Shown: piece after piece, positions 10,938-41,415 of the stretch
How the letters are laid out: every line of letters begins with the position of its first letter
Position numbering within the stretch: position 1 is the stretch's first letter
Source: Oscillospiraceae bacterium
Lineage (GTDB): Bacteria; Bacillota; Clostridia; Oscillospirales; Oscillospiraceae
Length of the DNA: 64,000 nucleotides
Assembly: GCA_017408525.1 (NCBI GenBank)
Contig: JAFQUN010000108.1
Location: 2,739-66,738, forward strand
Direction of reading: 5' to 3'
Notes under the pieces: model-generated
The model's input: only the letters and a program-made list of their open reading frames with translations
Told to the model about the DNA's origin: nothing
The model's database searches: none
Translations under genes and position numbers: made by a program

Positions 10938-11393
10938 GCGTAGATGGACAGTGCAGACTTTGCTGCGCCCGAGGGGCAGCGGAGTGGAGGGAAAAAGCTT
11001 ATATTTGGAGGATATTCTCGTGGATAAAGAGGTGTCGAGGCATCTGCGGCGAGTGGCTGAGCGATATCTGTGTTAGGATGTGTGAAATTCAATTTCTGTA
11101 TTTGAGTCGCAAATGGATAAACATGGGGGATCGCTATACCAAATGAGAGTGGTCTTCCCGTTTGTTGACGAGGTGTTGTATGGAGCGATTTTCGCACTGC
11201 AACATATGTGACATGGAGAGAGCGAGAACTAAAACCCCTTCCGTTCTGCTGCGTGGTGGAGGGAGTTGAAGCGTGCAGGCATTTTGCAAATTATTATTTC
11301 AAAATGATTTTTATACAACAGCGTATCCCTCTGAGACATGAGGGAACAGCCGCTAACGAGGAATAACAACATCAAAGTTTTTGAAAGGATATC

Positions 11394-12137
11394 GTGATTA
11401 TGAAAGTTGTGGGGATTATTCCGGCTCGTTATAAATCCAGTCGTTTTCCTGGAAAACCTCTTGCTGAGATCTGTGGAAAGCCCATGATTTGGTGGGTGTA
11501 TCAGCAATGCATGAAGGTGCCGGAACTTGACTATGTGGTAGTAGCTACGGAAGATGAAAGAATCGAAACGGAATGCAAAAAGTTGGGTGTCAATGTGATT
11601 ATGACATCGGATGAGCATCCTACAGGGACTGATCGCATTGGAGAAGTTGCCAGAAAGATCCCAGCGGATTTATATGTGAACATTCAAGGTGATGAACCTA
11701 TGATCGAACCTGAAACGATCTCAAAAGCAATTCAACCGTTCTTTTCCAATCCTGACCTTCAAGTATCTAATCTTATGACGGCCATCCAAAATCCTGTTGA
11801 TGTGGTAAACTTTACCGTCCCTAAAGTTATAACCAACCAAGAAGGAATCGGAGTTTATCTGACTCGTAGTACTGCGCCATATCCCAAGGGCAGTATTCAG
11901 TATCAGTACTACAAGCAGGTTTGCGTCTATGGCTTCAAACCTGAGGCGTTACAATTCTATTGTACAACCCCGCGCGGTAAGATCGAAAAGATTGAAGATA
12001 TCGAAATTCTGCGTTTTATTGAAAATGGATATAGGGTTCAATTTGTGGAAGTGGATTCAGAGACGACTGCGGTGGATACGCAAAATGATCTAGAGAAAGT
12101 CCGGTGTCTCATGGCAGAGAAGATCGACAGGGAGTAA
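11394..12137 (+). CDS. kdsB: KdsB-like 3-deoxy-manno-octulosonate (CMP-ulosonate) cytidylyltransferase
   Basis: MKVVGIIPARYKSSRFPGKPL...GKPMIWWV...TGTDRIGEVA...VNIQGDEPMIEP...AVDTQNDLEKV is colinear with the E. coli KdsB motifs (IIPARYASTRLPGKPL, SGTERLAEV, VNVQGDEP, GVDTPEDL). The start is GTG 11394 or ATG 11400. Confidence 0.85.
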   Translation: MIMKVVGIIPARYKSSRFPGKPLAEICGKPMIWWVYQQCMKVPELDYVVVATEDERIETECKKLGVNVIMTSDEHPTGTDRIGEVARKIPADLYVNIQGDEPMIEPETISKAIQPFFSNPDLQVSNLMTAIQNPVDVVNFTVPKVITNQEGIGVYLTRSTAPYPKGSIQYQYYKQVCVYGFKPEALQFYCTTPRGKIEKIEDIEILRFIENGYRVQFVEVDSETTAVDTQNDLEKVRCLMAEKIDRE

Positions 12138-12140
12138 CAG

Positions 12141-13730
12141 ATGAGCAAGATAAGACTATTGGACTGTACTTTGCGTGATGGAGGATATATCAACAACTGG
12201 CTTTTTGGAAGCAATAACATTAAAGAAATCTTATCAAGACTTGTTGATGCCAATATTGATGTTATTGAATGTGGATATCTATCGCAAGCGTGGAAAGAAG
12301 ACAAAAACTCAAGCCGCATGGCGAGCATCGAAATAGCTAACGAGGTAATTCCAAAATATGGAAGTTCCGATTTTGTTGCGATGATAAATTTCGGCGATTA
12401 TGCCATGGAAGATATTCCTGCCTGCACAGGCGTCGGACTAACCGGCTTACGAATTGCGTTTCACAAAAAAGACATGGAAAAGGCACTTGTCTACTGTGCA
12501 GCCATAAAAGAAAAGGGATATAAGCTCTATATACAGCCTATGGTTTCCCTAAATTATAGTGACGAAGAATTTCTGAACTTGATAGGGAAAGCGAATGAAA
12601 TTGATCCTTACGCATTTTATATGGTTGACTCTTTCGGTGCAATGAGAAAGGAAGACCTGTATCGTTTGATGTATCTGCTTGACAATAATTTGTCCGAGAA
12701 CATCAGAATAGGGTTTCATTCTCACAACAATCTCCAATTGTCTTATTCTCATGCACAGACAGTGTGCCAACATGGTCTCAGCAGGGAGGTTATTATTGAT
12801 GCATCCGTGCTCGGAATGGGGCGCGGCGCGGGGAACCTGAACACGGAATTGTTTGCGGAGTATTTGAATCGAGACCATGATGCAAATTATAACATTGTTC
12901 CGCTTCTTAAGATCGTTGACCGTGTAATCGCACCGATTTATCAAACGAAATATTGGGGCTACTCGCTCCCTTATTATCTGTCTGCATCCTATAACTGTCA
13001 CCCAAGCTATGCAGGATATCTGGATGAAAAAAAGACGCTTGCCGTTGAAAACATGGATGAAATATTTTCCATGATCGATGGAGAGCAGCGAAGCGTTTTC
13101 AACAAGGCGTATATTCGGGATCTATATGAAACCTATCAAGGAAAGAAGAGAATATTCAAAGGCAGTGATTGCCTGAGAAAGGCTTTTAGCGGGAAAGAAA
13201 TCCTGATTTTGGCACCAGGGAAGAGCGTGTTTTTAGAGCAGGAAAAGGTGTCCGCTGCGATTGCCAAAGGGATGCCTGTCGTTTCGGTCAATTTTAAGCC
13301 AAAGAATGTCAAAACAGACTATATTTTTGTCAGCAATCTTAGGCGATGGGAAACCCTTCCAAAAGAAGACGATGCGAAGATCATTGTTACATCCAATATT
13401 CAGAAGAACACGGACGGCGTGTTGGTTGTAGATTATATAGAGCTGTTGAATACAGAGGAGTATGTTAACGACAATGCGGGGCTCATGTTAATCGCTTTTT
13501 TGATAAAGCAGGGTGCTCGAAAAATACACATAGCAGGAATGGACGGATACTCTCCTCTTGCGGAGGATAACTATTTAGATGAGGGGCTGGTCATTCCGAA
13601 GCGAAGAGATGTTATTCTGAGGCAGAATGCAGGAATGGAAAGCGTGCTGGAACGGTATTCCAAGCAAATTCCTATAGAGTTTGTCACAACTCCGAGATTT
13701 GTGAGACCGGTTTTGCGTGAAAAAATCTGA
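12141..13730 (+). CDS. Fusion protein: N-terminal HMGL-like/DRE-TIM aldolase domain plus C-terminal DUF115/Maf- or sialyltransferase-like domain
   Basis: 529 aa. The N-terminus carries LLDCTLRDGGY and GFHSHNNLQL (DRE-TIM metallolyase Asp and His-x-His signatures). The C-terminal ~190 aa carry ILILAPGKSV, DYIFVSN and ARKIHIAGMDGY. These resemble the GxGPS, D..F..N and G.D motifs of CstII/Maf(DUF115)-type enzymes. That resemblance is from memory and is not verified. Confidence 0.65.
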   Translation: MSKIRLLDCTLRDGGYINNWLFGSNNIKEILSRLVDANIDVIECGYLSQAWKEDKNSSRMASIEIANEVIPKYGSSDFVAMINFGDYAMEDIPACTGVGLTGLRIAFHKKDMEKALVYCAAIKEKGYKLYIQPMVSLNYSDEEFLNLIGKANEIDPYAFYMVDSFGAMRKEDLYRLMYLLDNNLSENIRIGFHSHNNLQLSYSHAQTVCQHGLSREVIIDASVLGMGRGAGNLNTELFAEYLNRDHDANYNIVPLLKIVDRVIAPIYQTKYWGYSLPYYLSASYNCHPSYAGYLDEKKTLAVENMDEIFSMIDGEQRSVFNKAYIRDLYETYQGKKRIFKGSDCLRKAFSGKEILILAPGKSVFLEQEKVSAAIAKGMPVVSVNFKPKNVKTDYIFVSNLRRWETLPKEDDAKIIVTSNIQKNTDGVLVVDYIELLNTEEYVNDNAGLMLIAFLIKQGARKIHIAGMDGYSPLAEDNYLDEGLVIPKRRDVILRQNAGMESVLERYSKQIPIEFVTTPRFVRPVLREKI

Positions 13731-13745
13731 ACCAAGGGGGAAATC

Positions 13746-14768
13746 ATGAAAACTGTTTCGTTTGGAGAAATCATGCTCAGACTAAAGGCTCCTGGACATG
13801 AGCGATTATTTCAGGGAAACCGTTTGGAAACCTCGTTTTGTGGCGCAGAGGCGAATGTAGCGGTGAGTTTAGCCAACTATGGAGCAGACTCCCACTATGT
13901 AAGTATTCTACCCGACAATGCAATCGGAGATGCATGTATCAGAGAACTTCGCAGTTGGAATGTAAAGACGGAAGCGATTGCTAAGGTGCCGGGGCGGATG
14001 GGCATTCTCTTTCTGGAGGCGGGAGCAAACCAGCGTCCAAGTCAAGTTATGTATGATCGCTGTTTTTCTGCACTTGCCCAAGCAGCGAGTGACAGTATTG
14101 ACTGGGAGGAAGTGCTGATCAATGCAGATTGGTTTCACATATCCGGGATTACACCGGCACTTTCACCGCAGGCGGCAGAGATAGCGTTTTCTGCTGTGAA
14201 AACAGCAAAAAGGAACGGTGTGACCGTATCTTGTGACTTGAATTACCGAAAGAATCTGTGGAATTACGGGAAAACGGCTACGGAAGTCATGCCTTCATTT
14301 GTGGAACTGACAGATGTACTGATCGCCAATGAAGAAGACATTCAAAATGCATTGGGAATTACAACCGGATTTGAGGTTGACAGCGTTTTAGATAGCGAAA
14401 AGTACGAAGAATTAGCTCAAAAAGTTTTTGCGGTCTACGGGAACCTCCAAAAAATTGCGATTACGCTGCGAGAAAGCCACAGCGCCGACTGGAACGACTG
14501 GTCTGCGTGTCTATTTGAGAAAAACGCCTGCTTTATCAGCAAAAAATATAGCATTCGAAATATTGTGGATCGGGTTGGCGGCGGAGATTCCTTTGCAGCC
14601 GGATTGATCTATGGTCTGAATCACTATGCGGAAAAACAGTCTGCAATTGAATTTGCAGTAGCGGCAAGTTGTCTGAAACACAGCATTTTGGGCGATTTTG
14701 CTAGAATCAGCGCGAAAGAGGTTGAAACACTCATGAACTCTGAGGGAACGGGTCGAATCGTTCGCTGA
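13746..14768 (+). CDS. PfkB-family sugar kinase, 2-dehydro-3-deoxygluconokinase (KdgK)-like
   Basis: 340 aa. FGEIMLRL...GAEANVAVSLANYG and a C-terminal DRVGGGDSFAAGLIYG ATP-binding motif. The overall pattern is typical of KdgK. Confidence 0.75.
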   Translation: MKTVSFGEIMLRLKAPGHERLFQGNRLETSFCGAEANVAVSLANYGADSHYVSILPDNAIGDACIRELRSWNVKTEAIAKVPGRMGILFLEAGANQRPSQVMYDRCFSALAQAASDSIDWEEVLINADWFHISGITPALSPQAAEIAFSAVKTAKRNGVTVSCDLNYRKNLWNYGKTATEVMPSFVELTDVLIANEEDIQNALGITTGFEVDSVLDSEKYEELAQKVFAVYGNLQKIAITLRESHSADWNDWSACLFEKNACFISKKYSIRNIVDRVGGGDSFAAGLIYGLNHYAEKQSAIEFAVAASCLKHSILGDFARISAKEVETLMNSEGTGRIVR

Positions 14769-14802
14769 TTGACGATTGCAAGAGGAGGAGTCGGGAGCCT
14801 AT

Positions 14803-16218
14803 ATGTTAAGTCGATTTAAAAATTGGTTGAAACGGTGGCTGCCGCCAACGTCTAAGTCGTTTTATCAGGCAATGAACCGTTTGCAAAGAGAATATGAGCG
14901 GCATTTAAGCCATATTGACCATCAGTTGAATGCTCTGACAAGCCATATTGATCATCAGTTGAATACTCTGAATCAGCAACTTGCCAGTGTTCAGAAATGC
15001 GAAGAGATGCTTATTGAGGTTAATCGGGAAATAACAACACAACTGGAAACGCTGAGCGAACAGCTTATGAAGATGTGTGAGCAGGAGACGGCTGTTGCGC
15101 AGGAGCAGAACGCTCTCTTTGGCGATCTGCGGCTACAGAGCGATTTGGGAATGAAAGTGTCTGAAGATATCAAGGAGCGTTTGGAGGAAATTGTGCAGAC
15201 CCAGGCACAGAATGAGGCTGCTATACAAAAACAACAGGCAAGCCTTCTTTCTGAAGTGCGCGTTTGCCGGCGTAACTCCACTGCTCGGTATATCTACACC
15301 AACCTAACAGAAAGAGAAGCATTGGCAGAATCTTTCGCTGAAATCATGCAGGACAGCCCTGCCTTTGAAAGAAAATTCCAAAAGCTGATACGAGGATTGG
15401 ATACACAGAGTAGGCAAAATGTCATTCGCATTCTTAGCAGGATGCATAAGATTCTTGACCGAAACACCAAAGGCATTGATTTGTTCACCGAGCAAGAGCA
15501 AGAAGAATTGCGCAAAATGAAGGATGACTTTTCTGCGCAAATTCTGCAGGTGTCAGATCAAATGTACTGTTACAACGGATACTTATTACCGGTTAATCAG
15601 TTTGATGCCAGCGTATTTTACAGTCGGTACGGGTTGGAATTGGTTGAAGGTCTCGAGAGAATTAGGCAGGGAGACATTATCGATGCTGGAGGATACGTGG
15701 GAGATACCGCGTTGCTTTTCTCGTCTTTGACATCAAAAAATGTTTATGTGTTTGAGGCAGCGCCTGACAACTACGATCTGGTGCAAAAGACGGTTGCCTT
15801 AAACGGTCTAACCAATGTAGTTGCTGAAAATTTGGCGTTGGGCGCGGAGCGCTGCACCATGACTTTCAGTCTCGGAGAGAGAAATTCCTGCAATACCTTG
15901 ATAGAGCGACCGGGGTATGTTTATCCTGAACACATTGATGTTCAAGTTGTTTCTCTGGACGAATATGTCCGCGAACACAATCTGAAGGTGGGTTTGATTA
16001 AGGTGGATGTCGAAGGCGGCGAGCAGTTGGTCCTAAAAGGTGCTTTGGAAACAATTCGCCGCTTCAAACCGGTACTTTTATTCAGCATTTACCACAGTGC
16101 CAGCGATTTTTTTGACATTAAGCCGATGATTGAAGAGCTGGGCTTGGGGTATAAGTTCAAAGTGTTTAAGCCTATCAATAATGCTATTGCAATAGAAACT
16201 GTATTGATTGCAGAATAA
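14803..16218 (+). CDS. Coiled-coil protein with a C-terminal FkbM-family methyltransferase domain
   Basis: The ATG at 14803 lies behind a GAGGAGGAG RBS. The N-terminal ~230 aa are Q/E/L-rich and heptad-like, including a tandem 11-aa repeat SHIDHQLNALT/SHIDHQLNTLN. The C-terminus has DAGGYVGDTAL...VSLDEYV...IKVDVEGGEQLVLKGA, which is FkbM-like. Confidence 0.75.
   Translation: MLSRFKNWLKRWLPPTSKSFYQAMNRLQREYERHLSHIDHQLNALTSHIDHQLNTLNQQLASVQKCEEMLIEVNREITTQLETLSEQLMKMCEQETAVAQEQNALFGDLRLQSDLGMKVSEDIKERLEEIVQTQAQNEAAIQKQQASLLSEVRVCRRNSTARYIYTNLTEREALAESFAEIMQDSPAFERKFQKLIRGLDTQSRQNVIRILSRMHKILDRNTKGIDLFTEQEQEELRKMKDDFSAQILQVSDQMYCYNGYLLPVNQFDASVFYSRYGLELVEGLERIRQGDIIDAGGYVGDTALLFSSLTSKNVYVFEAAPDNYDLVQKTVALNGLTNVVAENLALGAERCTMTFSLGERNSCNTLIERPGYVYPEHIDVQVVSLDEYVREHNLKVGLIKVDVEGGEQLVLKGALETIRRFKPVLLFSIYHSASDFFDIKPMIEELGLGYKFKVFKPINNAIAIETVLIAE
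14908..14973 (+). repeat. Tandem 33-nt (11-codon) repeat within the coiled-coil region
   Basis: AGCCATATTGACCATCAGTTGAATGCTCTGACA followed by AGCCATATTGATCATCAGTTGAATACTCTGAAT. Confidence 0.9.
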
Positions 16219-16239
16219 ATGAAAAGTTGGTGAAGGTAA

Positions 16240-18096
16240 ATGGGTGAGAGAATAGCTGTTTTTGTATCACACAGAATTGATTTGCCTTGCGAAACGCCGC
16301 AAAGCTCACTATATCATCCGATGCGTTGCGGCGCCGTTTACGACACCGGAAACGCAACAATTCCGGGAGACCATACAGGAGAGCACATATCCGAACGGCG
16401 TAACTCGATGTGCGAACTTACAGTTCAGTATTGGGCATGGAAAAATTATGATGCTGATTATTATGGTCTGTGCCATTATCGAAGATACTTTTCTTTTTCG
16501 GATCAGCTGTATGGGATGCAGCGTTTTAACGTTGTGGATTCTGATACAATTTCTGCTGCCGCAAAAAAGTATTGTTTAACAGACGAGCAAAAAATGTCCA
16601 GAATAATTACATCACACGATGCAATTATCCCTACTGCCATCGATATTCGTACTGTTCTAACAGGTGTTCCTGGAGGAGAGCGCTTTTATCCCCATAGCAT
16701 TCTTGAGTTTTGGAACGCCAAAGTTGACCAAGTTGATCCCAGGTGTGTTGACGCGTTAATAAGAGTTGTCCAAGAACATCAGCCTGAATATTATCCTGCA
16801 TTAATGGAGTATTTGCACGGCACCACATTTTATGGTGGCTGTTGCTATATCATGCGCAAGGAGTTGTTCAATCAGCTTTGCGAATTCCAGTTTTCGGTCC
16901 TTGCAGAACTTGAAAAGCAATTTGATATGTCTTCCTATACGGGGGAGCATACGCGTCAACCTGCGTTTATGGGTGAAATTCTCTATGCTACGTTTTTGAT
17001 CTATCTAAGGAAGAAGGAATATAAAGTCAGAGAACATCAAGTTGTGCTGTTCAAGAGGTATCAAGTTGCGGCGGTGCCTACAAAAGCGCCGGCGGCGCCT
17101 ACAAAAGCACCGCAGGTAAATATGTCGAAAAAACCAAGCATTAGGGAAATGATTAGAAAAATGCTGCGTCGAATTTTTCCGGCGTATCGTGTAGCTTTGC
17201 GTATCGAGGAGTTTTTGCATGAGAATGCCTATGGCATGCTGCCAGGCACTGTGTCACCAAAAGATGCAGGGAAATCCGGAAAGTCCGGAAAACCGATCGC
17301 AGGTGTTTTAGCAAAGACACCGTGGCAAAAGCAGACCCTTACCTCAGATGTTGGGCTGGATGTTGCCTGCTTAGCGCTTGAAATTCGTGATACGCACAAG
17401 GCGAGCTTCTCCGAATTTAGGAATTGCCACACCGGAAAGAATGTGGTTATTGTTGCAACAGGACCTTCTATGCGGCACTATACGCAGATGGATGGAATGG
17501 CACATATTGGCATGAACTCTGCGTATAAGAATGACAAGATCAAGCTGGATTACTATTTTATCACGGATTTTGAAAACCGCGTGGAGATGTTTCAGGATCT
17601 GAAGGAATATGATTTTGTTAAGTTCTTTGGGCAATATTCGGCAGGCATCTACCGCGACCGCTTCCAGGCATCTGAGCAGATGATCTTTGAAAACAAGGGG
17701 CGCCGCTTCTTCCAAGGTGCACCGAGCATGGATATCCATGTGAACATTGAATATTACCCATTGATGGCGTTCTATTCCGTTGCATTCCAAGCAATTCATT
17801 TTGCGCTATATACAAATGCAAAGCGAATATTCCTTGTGGGCTGCGATTGCTCTTCCGATGGTTATTTTGACGGCTCCCAACAGATAGGAAGCAACCCACC
17901 GAAGTGGGTTCTCGGCTATCAAAAATTAAAGACCTTTGTTGAACACTTCTATCCCGAGACAGAAATCATCTCTGTGAATCCTGTTGGTCTGAAAGGATTG
18001 TTCCACGATGTCTATACAGAGAGCTACCTAGATCAGCATCCTGAAATCGACCGTACGCAGTGTGAGATTCTCAAGCCTGAACTTTATGAGGAATAA
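16240..18096 (+). CDS. Bifunctional putative glycosyltransferase: N-terminal DUF4422 domain, low-complexity linker, C-terminal DUF115/sialyltransferase-like domain
   Basis: 618 aa. The N-terminus is a paralog of the 22235 gene (ISERRNSMCELTVQYWAWKNYDADYYGLCHYRRYFSF). The linker has AAVPTKAPAAPTKAP and GKSGKSGKP repeats. The C-terminus has NVVIVATGPSM, DYYFITDF and AKRIFLVGCDCS motifs. Confidence 0.65.
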   Translation: MGERIAVFVSHRIDLPCETPQSSLYHPMRCGAVYDTGNATIPGDHTGEHISERRNSMCELTVQYWAWKNYDADYYGLCHYRRYFSFSDQLYGMQRFNVVDSDTISAAAKKYCLTDEQKMSRIITSHDAIIPTAIDIRTVLTGVPGGERFYPHSILEFWNAKVDQVDPRCVDALIRVVQEHQPEYYPALMEYLHGTTFYGGCCYIMRKELFNQLCEFQFSVLAELEKQFDMSSYTGEHTRQPAFMGEILYATFLIYLRKKEYKVREHQVVLFKRYQVAAVPTKAPAAPTKAPQVNMSKKPSIREMIRKMLRRIFPAYRVALRIEEFLHENAYGMLPGTVSPKDAGKSGKSGKPIAGVLAKTPWQKQTLTSDVGLDVACLALEIRDTHKASFSEFRNCHTGKNVVIVATGPSMRHYTQMDGMAHIGMNSAYKNDKIKLDYYFITDFENRVEMFQDLKEYDFVKFFGQYSAGIYRDRFQASEQMIFENKGRRFFQGAPSMDIHVNIEYYPLMAFYSVAFQAIHFALYTNAKRIFLVGCDCSSDGYFDGSQQIGSNPPKWVLGYQKLKTFVEHFYPETEIISVNPVGLKGLFHDVYTESYLDQHPEIDRTQCEILKPELYEE

Positions 18097-18101
18097 AAGT
18101 C

Positions 18102-18884
18102 ATGAAAGTTGTACTTTTAGCTGGTGGCTTCGGCACCCGAATTTCCGAAGAAAGTCAATTCAAGCCCAAGCCCATGGTGGATCTGGGCGGAATGCCTATT
18201 TTGCTGCATATTATGAAGCTGTACTCTGCGCATGGGTTCAATGAATTCATTATCTGCGCGGGGTATAAGCAGCATGTCATCAAGGAGTATTTTGCAGATT
18301 ATTTTCTGCATACTTCCGACATTACCTATGACTTTACCAGCGGCAAGAACGAAATGACTGTGCATCGCAATCATTCCGAGCCGTGGAAGGTCACTGTGGT
18401 CGACACCGGTCTGAATACGATGACCGGTGGGCGCGTCAAGCGAGTAAAGGACTACATTGGGGACGAGCCGTTCATGCTGACGTATGGTGACGGTGTGTCT
18501 GATATCAACATTACGGAGCTTGTGAAATTCCATCAGTCTCATGGAAAGCTGGTGACCATGTCAGCGTACAACGCGGGACAGCGCTTTGGCGTGCTGGATA
18601 TTGACGAGAATGGCTGCATCAATGAATTCCGCGAAAAGACGCAGGGCGACGGGAACATGATCAACATCGGCTTCATGGTTTGCCAGCCGGAGTTTGTCAA
18701 TTACATCGATGGCGATAGCACGGTTCTGGAGAAGAAGCCGATGGAGACGGTCGCAAAGATCGGTCAGCTGATGGCGTACAAGCACGAAGGCTTCTGGCAG
18801 TGCATGGATACTGTGCGCGAAAAAGAGACACTGGAAAAGATGTGGGTCAAGGGCGAGGCTCCTTGGAAAGTGTGGGCTGATTGA
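18102..18884 (+). CDS. rfbF: Glucose-1-phosphate cytidylyltransferase
   Basis: MKVVLLAGGFGTRISEESQFKPKPMVDLGGMPILLHIMKLYSAHGFNEFIICAGYKQHVIKEYF is the canonical RfbF N-terminus. 260 aa. Confidence 0.9.
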   Translation: MKVVLLAGGFGTRISEESQFKPKPMVDLGGMPILLHIMKLYSAHGFNEFIICAGYKQHVIKEYFADYFLHTSDITYDFTSGKNEMTVHRNHSEPWKVTVVDTGLNTMTGGRVKRVKDYIGDEPFMLTYGDGVSDINITELVKFHQSHGKLVTMSAYNAGQRFGVLDIDENGCINEFREKTQGDGNMINIGFMVCQPEFVNYIDGDSTVLEKKPMETVAKIGQLMAYKHEGFWQCMDTVREKETLEKMWVKGEAPWKVWAD

Positions 18885-19948
18885 TGCGGTATATTGATTT
18901 TGGGTTCTATAAAGGAAAGCGAGTCTTTGTAACAGGTCATACAGGGTTTAAGGGCAGCTGGCTCTGCCGAATTTTGGTTAATGCCGGCGCGGAGGTAACG
19001 GGTTACTCTTTGCCCGCGCCCACCGACCCCAATTTGTTCGAGCTGGCGGGGCTGGAAGGCAAGATGAAGAGCGTCATAGGTGATGTCCGCGATTTGGCTG
19101 CAATGAAGCGTGCATTTGACGAAGCACAGCCGGAGATCGTGCTGCACCTTGCCGCGCAGCCCATCGTTCGCGACAGCTATAAAGATCCCGCCTATACTTA
19201 CGAAACCAATGTTATGGGGACAGTCAACATTCTCGAATGTGTGCGGCAGTCGAGTTGTGTCCGCAGCTTCTTGAATGTGACTACAGATAAGGTGTATCAG
19301 AACAACGAGTGGGCGTGGGGCTATCGTGAAAATGAGCCGTTGGACGGATTTGATCCCTATTCAAATTCGAAGTCCTGCTCTGAATTGGTCACACATAGTT
19401 ATCTCAACAGCTTTTTCGCGGATGGAGCGCTTGCTGTTTCCACCGCTCGCGCAGGAAATGTGATCGGTGGCGGTGATTTTGCAAACGATCGTATCGTTCC
19501 GGACTGTATTCGTGCTATGCAAGCGGGGAAAGATATCATTGTTCGCAATCCGCACTCCACTCGTCCGTATCAGCACGTTTTGGAGCCGTTGTTTGCCTAC
19601 CTGATGATTGCGCAGAGACAGTATGAGGACAGAAAATTTGCCGGTTGGTATAATGTTGGCCCTGATGAGTGCGACTGTGTGACAACGGGCGATTTGGTGG
19701 ATTTGTTTTGCAAGACGTGGGGTGATGGCGCCAAGTGGATCAATCAGGCGGAAGCCAACGCGCCCCATGAGGCAAACTTCCTTAAGCTGGACTGCTCCAA
19801 ATTGAAATCCGTCTTTGATTGGCAGCCTCGTTGGCACATTGATGAGGCAATCGGAAAAACCGTCGAGTGGACCAAGATTTGGTTGGAAGAAGGAGATGTG
19901 CCTGCCGAGATGGATCGGCAGATTGCAGATTACATGGGAGATATATGA
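18881..19948 (+). CDS. rfbG: CDP-glucose 4,6-dehydratase
   Basis: 355 aa. VFVTGHTGFKGSWL, DPYSNSKSCSELV (YxxxK) and the length are typical of RfbG/DdhB. The start overlaps the rfbF stop. Confidence 0.88.
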   Translation: MMRYIDFGFYKGKRVFVTGHTGFKGSWLCRILVNAGAEVTGYSLPAPTDPNLFELAGLEGKMKSVIGDVRDLAAMKRAFDEAQPEIVLHLAAQPIVRDSYKDPAYTYETNVMGTVNILECVRQSSCVRSFLNVTTDKVYQNNEWAWGYRENEPLDGFDPYSNSKSCSELVTHSYLNSFFADGALAVSTARAGNVIGGGDFANDRIVPDCIRAMQAGKDIIVRNPHSTRPYQHVLEPLFAYLMIAQRQYEDRKFAGWYNVGPDECDCVTTGDLVDLFCKTWGDGAKWINQAEANAPHEANFLKLDCSKLKSVFDWQPRWHIDEAIGKTVEWTKIWLEEGDVPAEMDRQIADYMGDI

Positions 19949-20880
19949 GAGCGGTTGTGATTACAGGAGCAGATGGTTTCATAGGAAGCCACCTTGTCCA
20001 ACATCTTGCAAAGCAAGGGATTCTGGTGTATGCCATCGTTTTAAATGAAAGTAAGACACGTTTCCGAGTGGAAGGGTTGCAGAATGTGAATGTGGTTGCA
20101 GCTGCGCCAGAAGATTATATGAGTCTGTGTTCTATACTGCCCATGGAACCGGATGCCTTTATTCACTTGGCATGGGACGGAGTTGCTCCAGAAAAGCGCA
20201 ATTCTACAGAAAAACAGTCGAAGAATATTTCCTGTGCTTTCAGTGCTGTTAGATTGGCAGCTACGATTCGTGCTGGACGTTTTATCCTTCCGGGCTCCAC
20301 CGCGGAGTATATGAACAGCGGAACCGTCATTAACGAAAAGACGCTGCCATCACCCCAGAACGCCTACGGTTCAGCAAAAATAGCCGTGCGTTACCTTTGC
20401 CGAAGCTTGTGTGATGAACTGGGGATTCCGTTTGTTTATGCTGTTATAACAGGTATTTATGCGTCAGACAGAACCGACAACAATGTTATATATTACGCTA
20501 TTTCAAACCTTTTGGCAGGGAAAAAACCTTCATTCACAAAACTGGAACAACTGTGGGACTATGTACACATTGACGATGTCGTACGTGCATTTGCTTGTAT
20601 TGCGGAAAAAGGGAAAGATGGAGCGTTTTATGCAATTGGACATGGCGATAACTGGCCCTTACGCAATTATATCTACCAGATCAGAGATATCATCAATCCC
20701 TCGCTTCCTCTTGGAATTGGGGAGATCCCGTACACGGGGGGAAGCCTCCCCATTTCGTGCGTTGACTTAACCGCGTTGCGTAGAGATACCGGATTTGAAC
20801 CGGTGGTCTCATTCGAAGCTGGAATTCGGGATGTGATTGCAAAGGTTGCAGAGCAGATGAACAACAAAGAGAATCTCTAG
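19945..20880 (+). CDS. NAD(P)-dependent extended-SDR epimerase/reductase (probable CDP-4-keto-6-deoxyhexose reductase/epimerase)
   Basis: The ATG at 19945 overlaps the rfbG stop (ATGA). VVITGADGFIGSHL Rossmann motif and a YGSAKIA catalytic YxxxK. Substrate specificity cannot be read from the sequence. Confidence 0.7.
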   Translation: MRAVVITGADGFIGSHLVQHLAKQGILVYAIVLNESKTRFRVEGLQNVNVVAAAPEDYMSLCSILPMEPDAFIHLAWDGVAPEKRNSTEKQSKNISCAFSAVRLAATIRAGRFILPGSTAEYMNSGTVINEKTLPSPQNAYGSAKIAVRYLCRSLCDELGIPFVYAVITGIYASDRTDNNVIYYAISNLLAGKKPSFTKLEQLWDYVHIDDVVRAFACIAEKGKDGAFYAIGHGDNWPLRNYIYQIRDIINPSLPLGIGEIPYTGGSLPISCVDLTALRRDTGFEPVVSFEAGIRDVIAKVAEQMNNKENL

Positions 20881-20891
20881 GAGGGGCAATT

Positions 20892-22031
20892 ATGGATTGT
20901 CTGGTTATAGGTTGCGGTCTATCGGGCGCAGTAATCGCTCGCCACCTGGCGGAACAGGGAAAGCTTGTGACGATTTGGGAACGGCGTGACCACATAGGCG
21001 GAAATATGTACGACTATGTGGATGAGCACGGGTTTTTGGTGCAAAAGTATGGACCGCATACGTTTCATACAAAAAACGAAGCGCTATATAACTACATGTG
21101 CCGGTTTGAACAGTGGAACGAATATAAGCTGACTTGTGGTGCTGTATGGAGTGGAAAATACACGCCAACGCCCTTTAACTTTACGACGATCGACACCTTT
21201 TATCCGCCGGAAAAAGCGATACAGCTAAAAGAAAAATTGACTCGTGCATTTGAAGGCAGACAGACAGCCACGGTTGTGGAAGTTTTGGAGCATCCTGATC
21301 CTGACATTCGGGGGTATGCCGAATTTTTGTTTAAAAATGATTATGCGCCGTATACCGCAAAACAGTGGGGGGTCTCCCCAGAAGAAATCGATCCGAGTGT
21401 ACTAAAGCGTGTGCCGCTTCGGTTTTCTTATCAGGAAGGGTATTTTGACGATCCCTATCAGGTCATGCCTGCCCATTCGTTTACCGCTTTCTTTGAAAAG
21501 CTGCTTGATCATCCCAACATTCATGTCAAACTTGGGATGGAAGCGCTCGACCATCTTTGCGCAAAAGATGGTGCGCTGTATTTGGATGGTGGGAAACTGG
21601 ATATTCCTGTCATCTATACAGGAGCATTGGATGAACTGTTTGGATGTGTCTACGGAAGACTGCCCTACCGCTCTTTGCGCTTTGAGTGGAAGTATTCTGA
21701 GGATGACAGTATTCAGGAAGCTCCTGTTGTGGCGTATCCGCAGGAGAATGGCTATACCCGTATTACGGAGTATAAAAAATTGCCAATACAAGATGGGCTG
21801 GGAACCAGCTATGCGGTGGAGTATCCCCTGCCCTATAAGGGGGATGAGAAGACGGAGCCCTATTACCCTGTACTGACGGAGAAAAGCCAGGAGCAGTATC
21901 GGCGGTATAAAGAACTTGCGGACAGAATTCCCAATCTAATTTGCTGCGGGCGTTTGGCAGATTTCAAGTATTATAACATGGATCAGGCGTTGGCACGAGT
22001 CTTAGATGTTTGTGCAGAATGTTTTGGATGA
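20892..22031 (+). CDS. glf: UDP-galactopyranose mutase
   Basis: 379 aa. DCLVIGCGLSGAVIARHLAEQGKLVTIWERRDHIGGNMYD, GPHTFHT and the ADFKYYNMDQA C-terminus are typical of Glf. Confidence 0.9.
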   Translation: MDCLVIGCGLSGAVIARHLAEQGKLVTIWERRDHIGGNMYDYVDEHGFLVQKYGPHTFHTKNEALYNYMCRFEQWNEYKLTCGAVWSGKYTPTPFNFTTIDTFYPPEKAIQLKEKLTRAFEGRQTATVVEVLEHPDPDIRGYAEFLFKNDYAPYTAKQWGVSPEEIDPSVLKRVPLRFSYQEGYFDDPYQVMPAHSFTAFFEKLLDHPNIHVKLGMEALDHLCAKDGALYLDGGKLDIPVIYTGALDELFGCVYGRLPYRSLRFEWKYSEDDSIQEAPVVAYPQENGYTRITEYKKLPIQDGLGTSYAVEYPLPYKGDEKTEPYYPVLTEKSQEQYRRYKELADRIPNLICCGRLADFKYYNMDQALARVLDVCAECFG

Positions 22032-22234
22032 GTGCAGGTAAGAGATATCAATTCTGCCGGCATTCATGTTCTGTTGCCAAATAAACCTTGTAGCGCCACT
22101 GTATACAAGACCGCTCCGGGTGCCGGAATTGCTTGCGCAGCTGGAGGGCGGTAGTCCTGCGCTGAGGGGTTGCGATTGAAGTGTAAATCTACGGACAATA
22201 AAGCCGTGGCAATAAAGAGGTAGGAGGGGCAACG

Positions 22235-23236
22235 GTGCCAGACATAAAGATATTTGTTTCTCGCCGCATTGATATCGATAGTGAAATGGTTGACAATCCG
22301 CTATATGTGCCGGTGCGCTGCGGCGCGGTGTTTGACGAGGAAAACCTGACGAATATCGCAGGGGATGACACAGGAGATAACATCTCAGAGCGCCGTATGA
22401 ACTTTTGTGAGTTTACTGTGCAGTATTGGGCGTGGAAAAACGAGTCAGCAGACTATTACGGGTTGTGCCATTATCGACGGTATCTCTCCTTCGACGAAAA
22501 GCACCACCGAACAAATGGGCATGGTCTTGTCATGGCAGCAAGTCTATCCCGCTTTGCAATGAAGCGGTACGGGCTGTTGGATAAAGCTGCAATGGTCGAG
22601 AAAATTGTACAGTACGATTTAGTGATGCCTGAGCCGGCGCCGGTTGCGCGGATGCCTCTGCCGCAAGGAAAAGTAAAAACAGTCCGACAACTGTGGGAAT
22701 CCCATGACGGTATTTTCTTTGAGAAAAAGGTTATTGATCGAATGTTTGAGTTGATCGATGATCTGTCTCCGGAATATAGTGCCTCAGCGAGGGAGTATTT
22801 TGCTGGTGATCACCATATGGGTTATAACTGCTATATTATGTGTAAACCGCTATTTGAGCGGTTGTGCTGTTTTCAGTTTCCCATTATGGAGGCGATCGAA
22901 GAGGAGTTAGATACTACCGGCTATACCGCTGAAATGCTTCGAACACCGGGTTATGTGGGAGAAATGCTGTTTGGCATATTCTTGTATCATGTGACACGTC
23001 ACGAGAAGTGGAGGGTAAGCCAACGACAGCTCGTTCTGTTTGTTGAAACGCGTGCATTGAGTTGGGCGGAGCATGCCCGAAGACGTTTTGCGTTTTGGAT
23101 GGGGCAAGTGCTTCGGATCATTATTGCCCCATTTTTTCCGTTGGGCACAAAACGGCGGAAGGTTCTCAGAGATATTTTTTATGCGGTCGTTTCCGCAAAA
23201 GAGAGAAGTGCTGCAGCGTCGTCTCAAACGAAATAA
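22235..23236 (+). CDS. DUF4422-domain protein (putative glycosyltransferase, possibly Galf-related)
   Basis: 333 aa. GTG start behind a GGTAGGAGGGG RBS. Paralogous to the N-terminal domain of the 16240 gene (ISERRMNFCEFTVQYWAWKNESADYYGLCHYRRYLSF). Confidence 0.7.
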   Translation: MPDIKIFVSRRIDIDSEMVDNPLYVPVRCGAVFDEENLTNIAGDDTGDNISERRMNFCEFTVQYWAWKNESADYYGLCHYRRYLSFDEKHHRTNGHGLVMAASLSRFAMKRYGLLDKAAMVEKIVQYDLVMPEPAPVARMPLPQGKVKTVRQLWESHDGIFFEKKVIDRMFELIDDLSPEYSASAREYFAGDHHMGYNCYIMCKPLFERLCCFQFPIMEAIEEELDTTGYTAEMLRTPGYVGEMLFGIFLYHVTRHEKWRVSQRQLVLFVETRALSWAEHARRRFAFWMGQVLRIIIAPFFPLGTKRRKVLRDIFYAVVSAKERSAAASSQTK

Positions 23237-23814
23237 GTGGCGTGCAGAAACTTTTTGGAAACAGGGGTAAGAGCAACGCGATGTTTCTTGTCTTCGGTGT
23301 GCTTTCTGACGAAGTAGGCTGCAGAGGACATCCCGATTCTTGAAATGGCCAGTATAGGCGGATCGAGCGCAAGGAAACGGTCGTTGATTTGCTGCGCAGC
23401 GCCCTCCACACTTTGCAGCTGGCTGTAGATGCCGATGATGATTTCCGTTTCCTGAAGCAGATGGTCGCTGGTTGAACCGACCGTGTTTCTGGTCAGAGTC
23501 TTGAATTCTACGAAATCCACAATAGAGAATCTCTCCCCCGAGATAGACGTTGCAATGGTTCGCGGGACATGGAATTCATGTTGGAGATTTTCTTTGGAGA
23601 AGTATAATGGGAAAGGATATACAGCGCTGTTGCCGAGAATCTTCCATTGAAAATCCCTCGCAGTCATTCTAGAATGACCACGAAGGTGGATAGCGTCAAG
23701 AGTTGTGCGTAAATTAGTTCGCAGCTTCTGGTCAAATGGAGTCAGTCGACAATAGAGGTATCCTCGAAAGCTGCCTCTAAATGCTTCATGTTCATGAGCT
23801 TCTTGCTGCCCCAC
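23224..23814 (-). pseudogene. Unassigned ORF or gene remnant adjacent to the transposase relic
   Basis: 196-aa ORF with no family I recognise. It overlaps the 3' end of the DUF4422 gene and the C-terminus of the IS relic, and has no clear RBS. It may be a fragment of cargo or of a disrupted gene. Confidence 0.2.
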
Positions 23815-24422
23815 TGTGTGCCGGAAATATGCGTAGCTGTGCGCAGACCAACATCAGCGCAGAGGTGCCGCAGGGAAAAGTCTCCACTATCCTCGTTAAG
23901 TGGCGGAGCTCGCGGTTTTGAACTATTCAATGGCATTGTTGGTCTGGATCCGAGTCCAGTGTTCGAACAGAAAACCGTAGTAGGTCCAATGCTGTTCGGA
24001 CAAAAGCGCAAACTGTTCGGTTTGCGAAAATTGAGAAATCCCTGCCCGTTTTTGAGATGGGCGGGGATTTCTTCGCCGTTACATTTTTGATCAGCGCTCG
24101 CACAGTTCTGCAAAAAATCCACCACATAAAAAGCCAGCGTATTCTTGATACGCCTAATTGTCTCTGCTGGAAAAAAGCTGCCTCCATTGAGATGCGGCAT
24201 GTGGATCGTGATACCTTCGGAAGTGGTGGTAAGATTTCGATAATAGTGGTCGCTGCGGCAGCCCTGGCGAGCCTCGCTGCGCTCGTAGCGTACCGCCTGA
24301 GTCAGCTTTTCTGCCTCGGCTTCCAGCAGTTTGTTGAGCGTTTCCTCCACGCTGCCGCGCACCAATTCCTTGATCTGACCCTTGATAATTTCTTCGTTCA
24401 GCTGTACAATCTTCTCGGACAT
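23742..24422 (-). mobile_element. Degenerate IS256-family (mutator-type) transposase gene: frameshifted and internally deleted
   Basis: The N-terminus LNKLLEAEAEKLTQAVRYERSEARQGCRSDHYYRNLTTTSEGITIHMPHL matches the IS256 transposase N-terminal pattern. EHWTRIQTNNAIE, ALMLVCA and HISGTQWGSKKLMNMKHLE blocks appear in three different frames. The total span of about 0.7 kb compares with about 1.2 kb for an intact gene. Confidence 0.75.
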
Positions 24423-24606: not shown

Positions 24607-25371
24607 TCACAGTTTCAGCTTTCCGTCCAAAAAGTCCTGATAGCGGTCACAGATCGCCTGCACATCGTCGCCAAATTCGATTTGGCGACCTTTGTGCAGC
24701 CACAATATTTTATTGCACATTTCGCGCACTTGTGCGATCGAGTGTGAGACCAGGATCGTTGTTGCACCGCTGCCGATGATCTCGCGCATTTTCTGTTCGC
24801 TCTTTTTTCTGAACGCACCATCGCCGACGGAAAGGACCTCGTCCAAAATCAAGATATCGGGATGCACCAGCGACGCGATCGAAAAAGCCAGACGCGACTT
24901 CATGCCGGAGGAGAGCTGCTTAAACGGTCTATCCTCAAATTCGCGCAGTTCGGCAAAGTCGATGATCCGGTCGTACGTTTCATCCATAAATTTGCGCGTA
25001 TAACCCAGCATGGCGCCGCGCAGATATGTGTTCTCCCGCACGGTGAGCTCGCCGTCAAAGCCGCTTCCAAGCTCCAAAAGCGCCGCAATGCTACCCTCTC
25101 TTCGTACATAACCGCAGGTTGGTCGCATGATCCCGGAGACGACCTTGAGCAGTGTGGACTTGCCGGCACCGTTAGTGCCGATAATACCAAGCATATCCCC
25201 CTTTTCAATAGAGAATGTGATGTCCTTATCTGCCCAAAACTCCACGACATTATAATTCTTCTTGATTTTGCGAAGAACGTATTCTTTCAAACCGATGTCC
25301 TTAAAGTCGCCCGTCATGTAGCGAATGGACACGTTGTTTACTTCCAAAATGCTCATGGCATCCTCCGTCAA
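24607..25371 (-). CDS. tagH: Polysaccharide/teichoic-acid export ABC transporter ATP-binding protein (TagH/Wzt-like, short form without a C-terminal extension)
   Basis: 254 aa. Walker A GTNGAGKST, signature LSSGMKSRLAF, Walker B ILILDEVLSVGD. Confidence 0.85.
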   Translation of the reverse strand: MTEDAMSILEVNNVSIRYMTGDFKDIGLKEYVLRKIKKNYNVVEFWADKDITFSIEKGDMLGIIGTNGAGKSTLLKVVSGIMRPTCGYVRREGSIAALLELGSGFDGELTVRENTYLRGAMLGYTRKFMDETYDRIIDFAELREFEDRPFKQLSSGMKSRLAFSIASLVHPDILILDEVLSVGDGAFRKKSEQKMREIIGSGATTILVSHSIAQVREMCNKILWLHKGRQIEFGDDVQAICDRYQDFLDGKLKL

Positions 25372-41103: not shown

Positions 41104-41160
41104 CGCGATAGGTCATCGGCGCGGCGGAAAAGCTCCGCGCCGGTGACCTGTAAAAAACTG

Positions 41161-41189
41161 TTGACATAGCGGCGGATATATGATATGCT
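41161..41189 (+). promoter_or_regulatory. Sigma-A-like promoter of the tRNA pair
   Basis: TTGACA (41161-41166), a 17-nt spacer, then TATGCT. Confidence 0.55.
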
Positions 41190-41414: not shown

Positions 41415-41415
41415 C

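Follow-up and report, generated by a model that had tools for sequence, protein, structure and literature searches.

In the CMP-Kdo pathway (KdsD-KdsA-KdsC-KdsB, with KpsF and KpsU in capsule loci) the carbon-carbon bond of the sugar acid is made by a PEP-dependent barrel of the DAHP-synthase type, and the order of steps is synthase, KdsC-type phosphatase and CMP-synthetase. The nonulosonic pathways (NeuB, PseI or LegI with NeuA, PseF or LegF) also rely on PEP, yielding a 2-keto-3-deoxy acid that is activated with CMP for transfer by enzymes resembling polysialyltransferases or Maf/PseD, whilst the animal route comprises a kinase, a 9-phosphate synthase, a phosphatase and a CMP synthetase. The locus described here resembles each of these in part, but its best explanation is a non-canonical route, built on a class II pyruvate aldolase whose product, a phosphorylated 2-keto-3-deoxy acid, is afterwards activated with CMP, within a horizontally acquired, ABC-transporter-dependent cell-surface glycan locus; the probability of this reading is put at about 0.6. 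Neither published work nor curated family libraries were found to describe such a module, in agreement with the first-pass annotation, which knew of no report of this gene combination as a pathway.

The window, by which is meant the whole 64-kb stretch of DNA that was analysed, belongs to a gut Oscillospiraceae MAG of 55-60% GC rather than to a classical Clostridium as first supposed, the products of ORF2 and ORF3 each being 100% identical to an Oscillospiraceae MAG protein. It contains a low-GC glycan island of ~12 kb with ten genes, all on the + strand, and this is opened by the three tightly packed genes ORF1, ORF2 and ORF3 that the first-pass annotation had placed there. ORF1 (11394..12137, +), whose start codon may be the ATG at 11400 instead of the GTG at 11394, encodes a KdsB/KpsU-like CMP-ulosonate synthetase of 247 aa with a PF02348 (CTP_transf_3) match at E 2e-49, and its closest solved structure is E. 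coli KpsU (1gq9, E 4e-54). The KdsB motif set that had been claimed for it is complete (IIPARYKSSRFPGKPL, GTDR, QGDEP and VDTQNDL) and profile searches keep it inside KdsB, with 299 bits against a cut-off of 255 for the NCBIfam subfamily NF009905 and 159.5 against 155.2 for TIGR00466 kdsB. All catalytic and CTP-binding residues of the family are retained, as are the two Asp equivalent to Mg-A ligands in true KdsB (PMC3149649) and the counterparts of Q98 and Y185, which in the E. coli enzyme bind Kdo O5 (PMC12199768). The sugar pocket, in contrast, carries Gln175 in place of a His and Ile205 in place of the Gln of LEQLR, both positions being invariant in the four true KdsBs compared, and the partner cytidylyltransferases of related loci also depart from these four at invariant pocket positions. 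Given such differences, the sequences suggest that the activated acid is unlikely to be Kdo, and the occurrence of the module in Gram-negatives equipped with a KdsA route of their own argues in the same direction.

The second gene encodes a 529-aa protein in two parts. Its N-terminal DRE-TIM (HMGL-like) domain (12141..13130, +) is that of a DmpG/BphI-like class II pyruvate aldolase: PF00682 covers residues 3-245 (E 8e-21), the top PDB match is the 'putative aldolase' 3dxi (5e-37), the next are the DmpG/BphI-type 4-hydroxy-2-oxovalerate aldolases 4lrs and 1nvm, and both of the metallolyase motifs noted earlier, DCTLRDG and HSH, are present. Among the structural relatives, the DmpG/BphI/HsaF aldolases have the best functional characterisation, and ORF2 shares with them the fold, the Asp/His/His metal site, the GxGAGN loop and a catalytic Arg; its metal ligands D13, H193 and H195 are kept, and so is R12. 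It differs in having a conserved Tyr16 at the position of the DmpG catalytic His (74/79 homologues), an extra Arg228 in its GMGRGAGN loop (75/79) and a fused second domain, in lying without an acylating aldehyde dehydrogenase partner in a glycan locus rather than an aromatic-degradation locus, and in scoring far under the NCBIfam cut-offs (100 versus 229). A further barrel residue, Arg104, is conserved in all 79 homologues and, together with Arg228, would point to a phosphorylated intermediate.

The remaining part of ORF2, which the aldolase always carries, was overlooked in the first reading. Residues ~335-529 (13143..13730, +) form a separate MptE/Maf-like Rossmann-type domain of ~200 residues in the PF01973 superfamily, modelled by AF2 with a pLDDT of 89.6, for which Foldseek returned the MptE HPPK 8sd5 (E 1e-6) and ST8SiaIII (E 7e-4) and hhalign gave 92% against stand-alone PseD-like proteins (E 7e-7). 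The fold and a GxS...GxD framework are common to the C-terminal domains of ORF2 and ORF5, the Maf/PseD/PseE flagellin glycosyltransferases and the archaeal MptE pyrophosphokinase, but the aldolase-fused domain has diverged too far for the Pfam model, with no Pfam match of its own, and occurs almost exclusively in fusion with the aldolase. Its conserved polar site consists of N384, N399, R402, T417-S418-N419, D444 and D468, each kept in 74 or more of the 79 homologues, and the domain is conserved also in loci that have no CMP-sugar synthetase. It is taken here as a putative nucleotide-binding domain, perhaps a kinase-type catalytic domain or an end-product sensor, and not as the glycosyltransferase.

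ORF3 (13746..14768, +) had been assigned to the PfkB kinases of 2-dehydro-3-deoxygluconokinase (KdgK) type, and this is borne out by matches of its 340-aa product to PfkB (E 3e-31), to the Thermotoga KDG kinase 2afb (E 2e-96) and, at 455 bits, to that half of the Eda-KdgK fusion model NF041633 which represents the kinase. Three contexts of its nearest relatives, at 61-65% identity, were examined; all look catabolic, and in two of them the gene lies directly after that for Eda (KDPG aldolase). In the Eda-KdgK pairs of semi-phosphorylative Entner-Doudoroff and uronate catabolism the kinase likewise comes right after a 4-hydroxy-2-oxo-acid aldolase, but the aldolase of the module is a class II DRE-TIM enzyme rather than the class I Eda, and the setting is biosynthetic. 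ORF3 is an ordinary KdgK, accessory to the module rather than part of its core.

Over 7,900 full-length homologues (517-561 aa) make up the aldolase-fusion family, which was traced to at least 593 species among GTDB genomes and spans at least nine bacterial groups, Gram-negatives among them. The Gram-positive setting emphasised by the first-pass annotation is therefore correct for the window but not exclusive, the module being present also in Bacteroidota, Campylobacterota, Alphaproteobacteria, spirochaetes and Fusobacteria. Nor does the trio behave as a unit in a neighbourhood co-occurrence check, in which genes were called with a greedy ORF picker: KdgK was present in only 8 of 82 related loci, plus the window (~10%). 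It overlaps the stop of the aldolase gene by 4 bp in four loci and that of the KdsB-like gene by 4 bp in another (L045). The conserved unit is instead the pair of cytidylyltransferase and aldolase fusion, adjacent or fused in 60 of the 78 loci sampled for it; a CTP_transf_3 enzyme, KdsB-like or PseF-like (the latter in ~40% of related loci), lies within 8 kb of the aldolase in 72-73 of 82. Campylobacterales have a single aldolase-MptE-KdsB protein of 768 aa (loci L072, L075 and L076), and a Leisingera plasmid has the gene order aldolase-KdsB-HAD. HAD-IA phosphatases occur in 29 loci, immediately downstream of the aldolase in 16, and in the sister clade of loci, as placed by an unbootstrapped NJ tree, a Gph-like HAD phosphatase stands where the window has its kinase, whereas the window clade has the kinase and no phosphatase. 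The sister-clade order of aldolase, HAD and KdsB-like enzyme parallels that of the CMP-Kdo pathway, with a HAD-IA (Gph-like) phosphatase in place of the KdsC type. In seven loci a YerE/ALS-like TPP enzyme replaces the CTP_transf_3 partner and in three a TagD-like enzyme is the only cytidylyltransferase less than 8 kb from the aldolase, so that CMP activation is not the fate of the aldolase product in every locus.

None of KdsA, KdsC, KdsD or NeuB was detected in six frames of the window by phmmer, run with the E. coli proteins as well as a NeuB-like sequence, and by a motif scan, so that the earlier statement that KdsA and NeuB are lacking there holds. Amongst 85 related loci there were no KdsA, no KdsD, one KdsC and three NeuB-like matches, the canonical synthases being missing from ~96%, and the NeuB-like enzymes probably serve a second sugar. 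None of the loci examined yielded an arabinose-5-P isomerase. The suggestion that a pyruvate aldolase replaces KdsA or NeuB in feeding the KdsB-like synthetase thus gains from the linkage of the pair, the triple fusion and the missing synthases, but not in its inclusion of the kinase.

In the proposed route the 529-aa protein would act as a metal-dependent, DmpG-like pyruvate aldolase that adds pyruvate, as a metal-bound enolate and not as PEP, to an anionic, most likely phosphorylated, aldehyde, taking over the job of KdsA or NeuB, and the neighbouring KdsB-like enzyme would join the resulting 2-keto-3-deoxy sugar acid to CMP. The most parsimonious candidate for the acid is the six-carbon KDPG/KDG: pyruvate and glyceraldehyde-3-phosphate would give KDPG, the KdgK of the island could supply the same intermediate from free KDG, and in the sister clade the Gph-like phosphatase would remove the phosphate before activation. 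This skeleton is favoured by the KdgK match of ORF3, its Eda-linked relatives, the 4-bp overlaps and the small difference between the aldolases of the KdgK and HAD clades, limited to five positions, all conservative; the HAD-IA phosphatases near the aldolase also suggest a phosphorylated intermediate, a feature reminiscent of the animal route. KdgK and the HAD phosphatase oppose each other on KDG/KDPG, so that in the window clade the donor would have to be phosphorylated or the phosphatase encoded at an unlinked site. Against KDPG/KDG are the presence of KdgK in so few loci and the KdsB-like pocket of the window clade, which is more hydrophobic, has no added basic residue and does not suit a 6-phosphate.

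The rest of the island is consistent with a glycan destination. After ORF3 comes a protein (14776..16218, +) in which domain and sequence analysis distinguished a helical N-terminal region of ~290 residues with many heptad repeats, predicted to be a coiled coil, and a C-terminal FkbM-family methyltransferase, possibly a glycan-modifying or chain-terminating enzyme. ORF5 (16240..18096, +) combines a DUF4422 glycosyltransferase-like domain, a PTKAPAA-type linker and a Maf/PseD-like (PF01973) domain with an Mpt6 HMM match (E 6e-15); it is the leading candidate for a transferase of the CMP-activated acid, which its Maf-like domain would pass to the glycan, and related loci are rich in CMP-sugar-using transferase families (PF07388 polysialyltransferase-like and PseD/Maf-like proteins). 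An RfbF-type glucose-1-phosphate cytidylyltransferase-like enzyme (18102..18884, +), an RfbG-type CDP-glucose 4,6-dehydratase-like SDR (18881..19948, +), an NAD-dependent epimerase/reductase of the SDR type (19867..20880, +, with its true start probably near 19945) and a UDP-galactopyranose-mutase-family (GLF) flavoenzyme (20892..22031, +) probably make up a CDP-6-deoxyhexose/furanose branch that serves the same glycan. A second DUF4422 glycosyltransferase-like protein (22235..23236, +) is the final island gene, a Mutator-family transposase remnant (23742..24422, -) marks the 3' edge of the low-GC island, and an ABC-2 type pair beyond it (24607..26135, -; ATPase 24607-25371, permease 25368-26135) is the probable exporter of the glycan.

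The alternative that survives best, though it is unlikely, is that the aldolase uses a longer aldehyde (erythrose-4-P, ribose-5-P, arabinose-5-P or a hexose or 6-deoxyhexose) to make a C7-C9 ulosonic acid that is DAH-, Kdo- or Kdn-like, with the kinase acting on a substrate other than KDG or serving as a side supply. It would explain why ORF1 is nearest to KpsU/KdsB, whose acid has eight carbons, and retains the Kdo O5 binders, and the hydrophobic pocket is what a terminal deoxy group would need; 6-deoxyhexose pathways are present in the window and several related loci, and a 3,9-dideoxy-nononic acid is listed among the polysaccharide sugars of gut Gram-positives (PMC12413058). However, it leaves a translationally coupled, canonical KdgK unexplained and the missing arabinose-5-P isomerase counts against it. 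Moreover, aldol addition of pyruvate to ring-forming aldoses is thermodynamically poor.

A scavenging scheme like that of NeuA with NanA/NanK is more doubtful still. Here the KdsB-like enzyme would activate free KDG from uronate catabolism directly, and KdgK with the DRE-TIM enzyme, as a class II KDPG aldolase standing in for Eda, would drain the excess to pyruvate and GAP, which suits the Eda-linked contexts of the kinase and the DRE-TIM gene's occupation of Eda's place in the window. The aldolase is nevertheless tied to the cytidylyltransferase and not to the kinase (7/78 loci), the triple fusion exists, the sister-clade phosphatase makes sense only in the synthetic direction, and none of the ten island genes encodes a sugar-acid transporter or uronate-catabolism enzyme. 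There is little likelihood that activation occurs through the phosphate, giving a CDP-6-KDG type donor (cf. CDP-glycerol and CDP-6-fructose) and a phosphodiester-linked, teichoic-acid-like polymer with no ketoside: the loci with TagD-like enzymes and the kinase without phosphatase in the window clade would fit, but no characterised CTP_transf_3 enzyme is known to use anything other than a 2-ulosonic acid's anomeric hydroxyl, ORF1 keeps both Mg-A-ligand Asp, and the transferases alongside resemble Maf or polysialyltransferases rather than TagF. Least probable of all is that ORF1 is an ordinary CMP-Kdo synthetase fed from elsewhere, with unrelated neighbours, since its KdsB-level profile scores are outweighed by adjacency or fusion with the aldolase kept across phyla, the altered pocket, the lack of KdsA in 85 loci, the monoderm nature of the Oscillospiraceae and an SLH-domain protein encoded by the host.

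If the aldolase route is correct, a keto-deoxy sugar acid for a cell-surface glycan would be supplied by a pyruvate aldolase and not by a PEP-dependent synthase.

The main support for a putative functional link between the DRE-TIM aldolase and the KdsB-like cytidylyltransferase comes from gene neighbourhoods and Rosetta-stone fusions. The aldolase gene (ORF2; 12141-13730, + strand) encodes a 529-aa fusion, which had gone unnoticed in the first-pass annotation, in which residues ~335-529 form a second domain. Proteins of this two-domain family (517-561 aa, E ≤ 1e-5) number more than 7,900, a lower bound, and the fusion was confirmed in at least 593 species at one genome per species; the best 80 of those matches are mostly from Clostridia and also include Bacteroidota, Campylobacterota, Melainabacteria, spirochaetes, Fusobacteria, Alphaproteobacteria, Bacillales and Acholeplasmataceae. 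Gene neighbours at 82 loci were taken from a greedy ORF picker and classified with HMMs built from the same loci, at thresholds set by eye. On this basis 72-73 of the 82 have a CTP_transf_3 cytidylyltransferase within 8 kb of the aldolase, of the KdsB-like type in about 41 loci and of the PseF-like type in about 33. At three loci from Campylobacterales MAGs (L072, 2352-4658; L075, 1674-3977; L076, 7989-10307) a single protein of 767-772 aa combines HMGL-like, MptE-like and KdsB-like CTP_transf_3 domains, with a HAD phosphatase gene downstream of it. Searches of plasmid and phage collections yielded no full-length homologue at ≥80% coverage but two informative distant loci, and on a distant Leisingera plasmid (27% identity) the aldolase, a 'KdsB' and a HAD hydrolase stand in a row. 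PF07388 polysialyltransferase-like and PseD/Maf-like proteins, families that use CMP-sugars, abound in the loci. The first-pass annotation had treated cytidylyltransferase, aldolase and kinase as one pathway; the pairing of the first two stood, the cytidylyltransferase adjoining or being fused to the aldolase in 60 of 78 loci, but the kinase did not share in it, since a KdgK follows the aldolase in just 8 of 82 loci, plus the window.

A further claim, that neither a KdsA nor a NeuB is encoded in the window, was borne out when E. coli MG1655 KdsA, KdsD and KdsC and a NeuB-like query were run with phmmer against every stop-free segment in the six frames of the window and of each locus. In the window there was no KdsA or NeuB hit at E ≤ 1e-3 and no signature motif, and its 64 kb likewise gave no KdsC or KdsD in six frames. 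The 85 related loci yielded no KdsA, no KdsD, one KdsC and three NeuB-like hits, and a motif scan agrees.

At seven of the related loci (L057, L063, L066, L073, L077, L082 and L039) a ~610-aa ALS/YerE-like TPP enzyme lies near the aldolase fusion, directly upstream of it in at least four, and no KdsB-like or PseF-like cytidylyltransferase is nearby. The CDP-hexose genes rfbF and rfbG accompany the TPP enzyme at L066, and at L086, on the Desulfobaculum plasmid NZ_CP090010.1, rfbH and a split transketolase precede the aldolase. At such loci the 2-keto acid may act as the donor of an acyl anion in the making of a branched-chain sugar.

The N-terminal part of ORF2 is an HMGL-like DRE-TIM domain, as had been proposed, and its nearest solved relatives are 3dxi and then the DmpG/BphI aldolases. 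Residues D13, H193, H195 and R12 align with D18, H200, H202 and R17 of DmpG, and these metal ligands and catalytic Arg are present in at least 77 of 79 homologues. The catalytic His (DmpG H21, BphI H20) is replaced by Tyr16 in 74 of the 79, and 3dxi also has Tyr; no DmpF-type dehydrogenase partner is encoded in the island, and the scores against two DmpG equivalog models are below cut-off (TIGR03217, 88.9 vs 286; NF006049, 100 vs 229). Because catalytic His, partner dehydrogenase and score all disagree, the aldolase is placed by its sequence outside the DmpG equivalog. Arg228 lies within the GMGRGAGN loop, at a site where DmpG has Ala, and together with the conserved barrel Arg104 it would suit an anionic aldehyde moiety. 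In the proposed reaction a metal-bound pyruvate enolate would add to glyceraldehyde-3-phosphate, or to another phospho-aldehyde, to give KDPG or a longer homologue. The two main branches of the aldolase tree, here the window clade and the HAD clade, differ at only five positions, all conservative, and their enzymes very probably catalyse the same reaction. A 772-aa homologue (P0300) has an HpcH/HpaI class II aldolase domain ahead of its HMGL-like and MptE-like domains, and thereby two pyruvate aldolases within one protein; at locus L009 an HpcH-like gene (11318-12079) is likewise found close to the aldolase.

ORF3 (13746-14768, + strand) had been read as a KDG-kinase-type PfkB protein, and this was upheld by a match to 2afb (E 2e-96) and by end-to-end alignment with the kinase half of the Eda-KdgK fusion model NF041633 (455 bits); it scores below the curated equivalog cut-offs of NF041332 (210.8 vs 440) and NF040938 (100.9 vs 400), both of them archaeal models. 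Three catabolic-looking contexts of its closest relatives (61-65% identity) were inspected, with a PF01081 Eda immediately upstream of the kinase in two and no called Eda in the third, and the contexts next to Eda indicate that ORF3 is a recruited, ordinary KDG kinase. At four related loci (L001, L006, L016 and L029) the KdgK gene begins within the stop region of the aldolase gene, with a 4-bp overlap. Proteocatella sphenisci DSM 23131 has the same trio as the window, and other cultured carriers are Eubacterium plexicaudatum ASF492, Flavonifractor sp. An82, Bacillus sp. EAC and Anaeromicropila herbilytica TB5. A Gph-like HAD-IA phosphatase is found in 29 loci, directly downstream of the aldolase in 16, and among the 82 loci it never occurs together with KdgK. 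In a neighbour-joining tree without support values the window clade comprises 24 leaves (23 related loci and the window's own protein), with KdgK in 7, stand-alone Maf-like genes in 13 and the HAD phosphatase in none, and the other large clade carries HAD and polysialyltransferase-like genes. On one reading the aldolase yields a phosphorylated 2-keto-3-deoxy acid of a kind that can also be formed by KdgK, and this points to KDPG; KdgK would top up the pool from free KDG, and one clade would dephosphorylate the product before activation. The rival that survives best has the same chemistry yield a longer ulosonate, as a longer phospho-aldehyde would; the KDG kinase speaks for the shorter chain, and the C6 identity of the acid is itself a tentative assignment that we regard as rather doubtful. 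Next comes a reading in which the acid is scavenged and then drained into catabolism, which would suit the catabolic-looking surroundings of the kinase's relatives and sits less easily with the small number of loci that have the kinase and the large number that have a cytidylyltransferase.

The HAD-clade module is flanked at eight loci (L033, L036, L038, L050, L047, L061, L065 and L078) by repeated two-protein pairs, each made up of a ~700-aa protein that is weakly HAD-like, with no other Pfam hit, and a ~520-aa polysialyltransferase-like protein. Such pairs may constitute a system that polymerises the acid.

ORF1 (11394-12137, + strand) is KdsB-like, in agreement with the motifs that had been recognised in it, with scores of 168.6 bits for PF02348, 299.4 against a cut-off of 255 for NF009905 and 159.5 against 155.2 for TIGR00466, and with E. 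coli KpsU (1gq9) matched at E 4e-54. The CTP/Mg-binding residues R10, S13, R15, K19, the Asp-Glu of QGDEP and the Asp of VDT (KpsU-based numbering, which may be shifted by a few positions) are all identical, and they are kept in at least 35 of 37 aldolase-linked homologues. Activation as a CDP-ester, the third rival, is made unlikely by the abundance around the aldolase of families that use CMP-sugars. Three Kdo-site residues that are invariant in four solved KdsBs, the His of HxGIY, the Gln of LEQLR and the Arg before the loop, are Gln, Ile and Lys in ORF1. The pocket signature is QHYQR in true KdsB, QQYIK in the window clade and mostly NHLEK or NFQEK in the HAD clade, and judged by these residues ORF1 fails the Kdo-pocket test for a true KdsB; the roles of residues other than Q98, Y185 and H181 are taken from conservation. 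In E. coli KdsB, Q98 and Y185 bind the Kdo O5 (PMC12199768). Both are kept in the window protein and absent in the HAD clade. Ordinary CMP-Kdo, the weakest rival, would explain the KdsB profile scores and is set aside on the altered pocket and on the want of any KdsA in the window or the related loci. In the window clade the KdsB-like pocket is more hydrophobic, and a search of it for added basic residues found none, which speaks, though not decisively, against a 6-phosphorylated donor such as CMP-(6-phospho)KDG in that clade.

The second domain of ORF2 has no Pfam match even at E 10 and none in a PDB profile search. Its predicted fold is confident (pLDDT 89.6) and of Rossmann type, and the best Foldseek match is the archaeal pterin pyrophosphokinase MptE (8sd5; E 1e-6, probability 1.0), at a TM of only about 0.5 (0.54); SteA and the sialyltransferase ST8SiaIII with CTP or CDP bound were also matched. 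A profile of the domain aligned by hhalign with stand-alone PF01973/PseD-like proteins of the related loci (92%, E 7e-7), pairing APGxS with GNGPS and AGxDG with LGxD, and the relationship was seen by fold comparison and hhalign only. The domain alone as query retrieved 365 cluster representatives at E ≤ 1e-10, and about half of the best 150 are fusions of ~520-540 aa with the domain at ~345-525. Stand-alone copies were considered and discarded, the one short match examined being an assembly fragment and the others being assumed likewise. A polar site formed by N384, N399, R402, T417-S418-N419, D444 and D468 is conserved, each position in at least 74 of 79 homologues, including those of the seven YerE/ALS-like TPP loci and of three loci with only a TagD-like enzyme. 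A role as CMP-ulosonate transferase was downgraded because the site is equally conserved with these other partners. The pattern would fit a part in the synthesis or control of the keto acid and suits a transferase with a variable acceptor less well. DRE-TIM synthases often carry nucleotide-sensing regulatory domains, and the fused domain could be of that kind or perform MptE-like kinase-type chemistry.

The module stands at the head of ten co-directional, closely packed ORFs (11394-23236, + strand), in a stretch of 43-50% GC (~11.4-24 kb) compared with 55-60% in the rest of the window. A Mutator-family transposase remnant (23742-24422, - strand) lies at its 3' end, and the GC contrast and the transposase fragment are consistent with horizontal acquisition; repeat and tRNA scans found no flanking direct repeats and no tRNA at the island edges. 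Promoter-like sites were at shuffle level (21 found, 20.7 expected), and terminator-like sites, at about twice expectation (24 vs 12.4), were scattered within genes and marked no operon boundary. Downstream of the kinase is a protein with a helical, repeat-rich N-terminal region and an FkbM methyltransferase domain (14776-16218). The helical region, of ~290 residues and a coiled coil to judge by its sequence, includes a tandem 33-nt repeat (14907-14971; SHIDHQLNxL), and the layout recalls what we take to be comparable coiled-coil chain-length regulators or terminators of ABC-dependent O-antigens, such as WbdD. ORF5 (16240-18096, + strand) joins a DUF4422 glycosyltransferase-like domain to a Maf/PseD-like domain, the latter matched by a locus-derived HMM at E 6e-15 and by Pfam PF01973 at 26.8-29.4 bits, under the cut-off of 34.6; a 21-nt tandem repeat (17069-17110) encodes the PTKAPAA-type linker between the two. 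RfbF-type and RfbG-type enzymes, an SDR and a GLF-family mutase (18102-22031) and a second DUF4422 protein (22235-23236) complete the set, and with ORF5 they suggest a CDP-6-deoxyhexose branch, possibly furanose. On the Leisingera and Desulfobaculum plasmids, too, DUF4422 and glf are found together with the aldolase. Beyond the 3' end of the island lies an ABC-2 exporter pair in divergent orientation, and by its gene content the island is a complete-looking, putatively ABC-transporter-dependent glycan locus. On its 5' side are an SLH-domain M23 peptidase, a two-component system and a Bmp-type ABC importer. The peptidase (888-3239; 783 aa) has an M23 domain, Ig-like domains and C-terminal SLH repeats, which indicate that the host tethers proteins to a secondary polymer of its cell wall; the island's glycan may be that polymer. 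Elsewhere, tRNA-Leu(TAA) and tRNA-Met (41207-41414, + strand) lie inside a 239-aa ORF (40890-41609, - strand), which is therefore probably no gene.

In the scheme that we favour the KdsB-like enzyme would convert the aldolase product into a CMP-activated donor, the Maf-like domain of ORF5 would transfer it, the DUF4422 proteins and the CDP-hexose branch would build the remaining glycan and the ABC-2 system would export it; read from sequence, this general scheme is given a probability of about 0.6. Like the Kdo and nonulosonate pathways, the module has a synthase, an optional phosphatase, a CMP synthetase and a sialyltransferase-like transferase, but its condensing enzyme is non-homologous to theirs and uses another donor. 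Among surface sugars, the CMP-activated ulosonic acids (Kdo, sialic, pseudaminic and legionaminic acids) are of key importance in immune recognition, as phage receptors and in vaccines. To our knowledge, every known route to them relies on a PEP-dependent KdsA or NeuB synthase.

The first-pass annotation had suggested that the combination was undescribed as a pathway, and no paper on the cytidylyltransferase-aldolase pair was found in the literature, most subscription journals lying outside the full-text search. No NCBIfam model (June 2026) is specific for the aldolase, and its C-terminal domain is not covered by any in Pfam. For the ORF2 and ORF3 products alike, a public protein with 100% identity comes from an Oscillospiraceae MAG; the one matching ORF2 is named only 'aldolase catalytic domain-containing protein'. 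The module is both widespread and uncharacterised. It is possible, if somewhat improbable, that hundreds of gut and environmental species use, as a nucleotide-activated building block of glycans, a C6 2-keto-3-deoxy acid (KDG or its 6-phosphate) that had so far not been recognised in this role. A new class II 'KDPG synthase' with a fused MptE-like domain would form the acid de novo out of pyruvate and glyceraldehyde-3-phosphate, and a KdsB-like enzyme would activate it. If true, this would give ulosonic-acid biosynthesis a third solution, independent of PEP, alongside KdsA and NeuB. A pyruvate-aldolase route would bring a new enzyme class into ulosonic-acid chemistry, would account for the 'KdsB' calls made by annotation pipelines in monoderm bacteria and would put a name to the more than 7,900 proteins of a family that at present goes by its catalytic domain alone. 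It would also imply an undescribed acidic surface sugar in many gut Clostridia and Bacteroidota.
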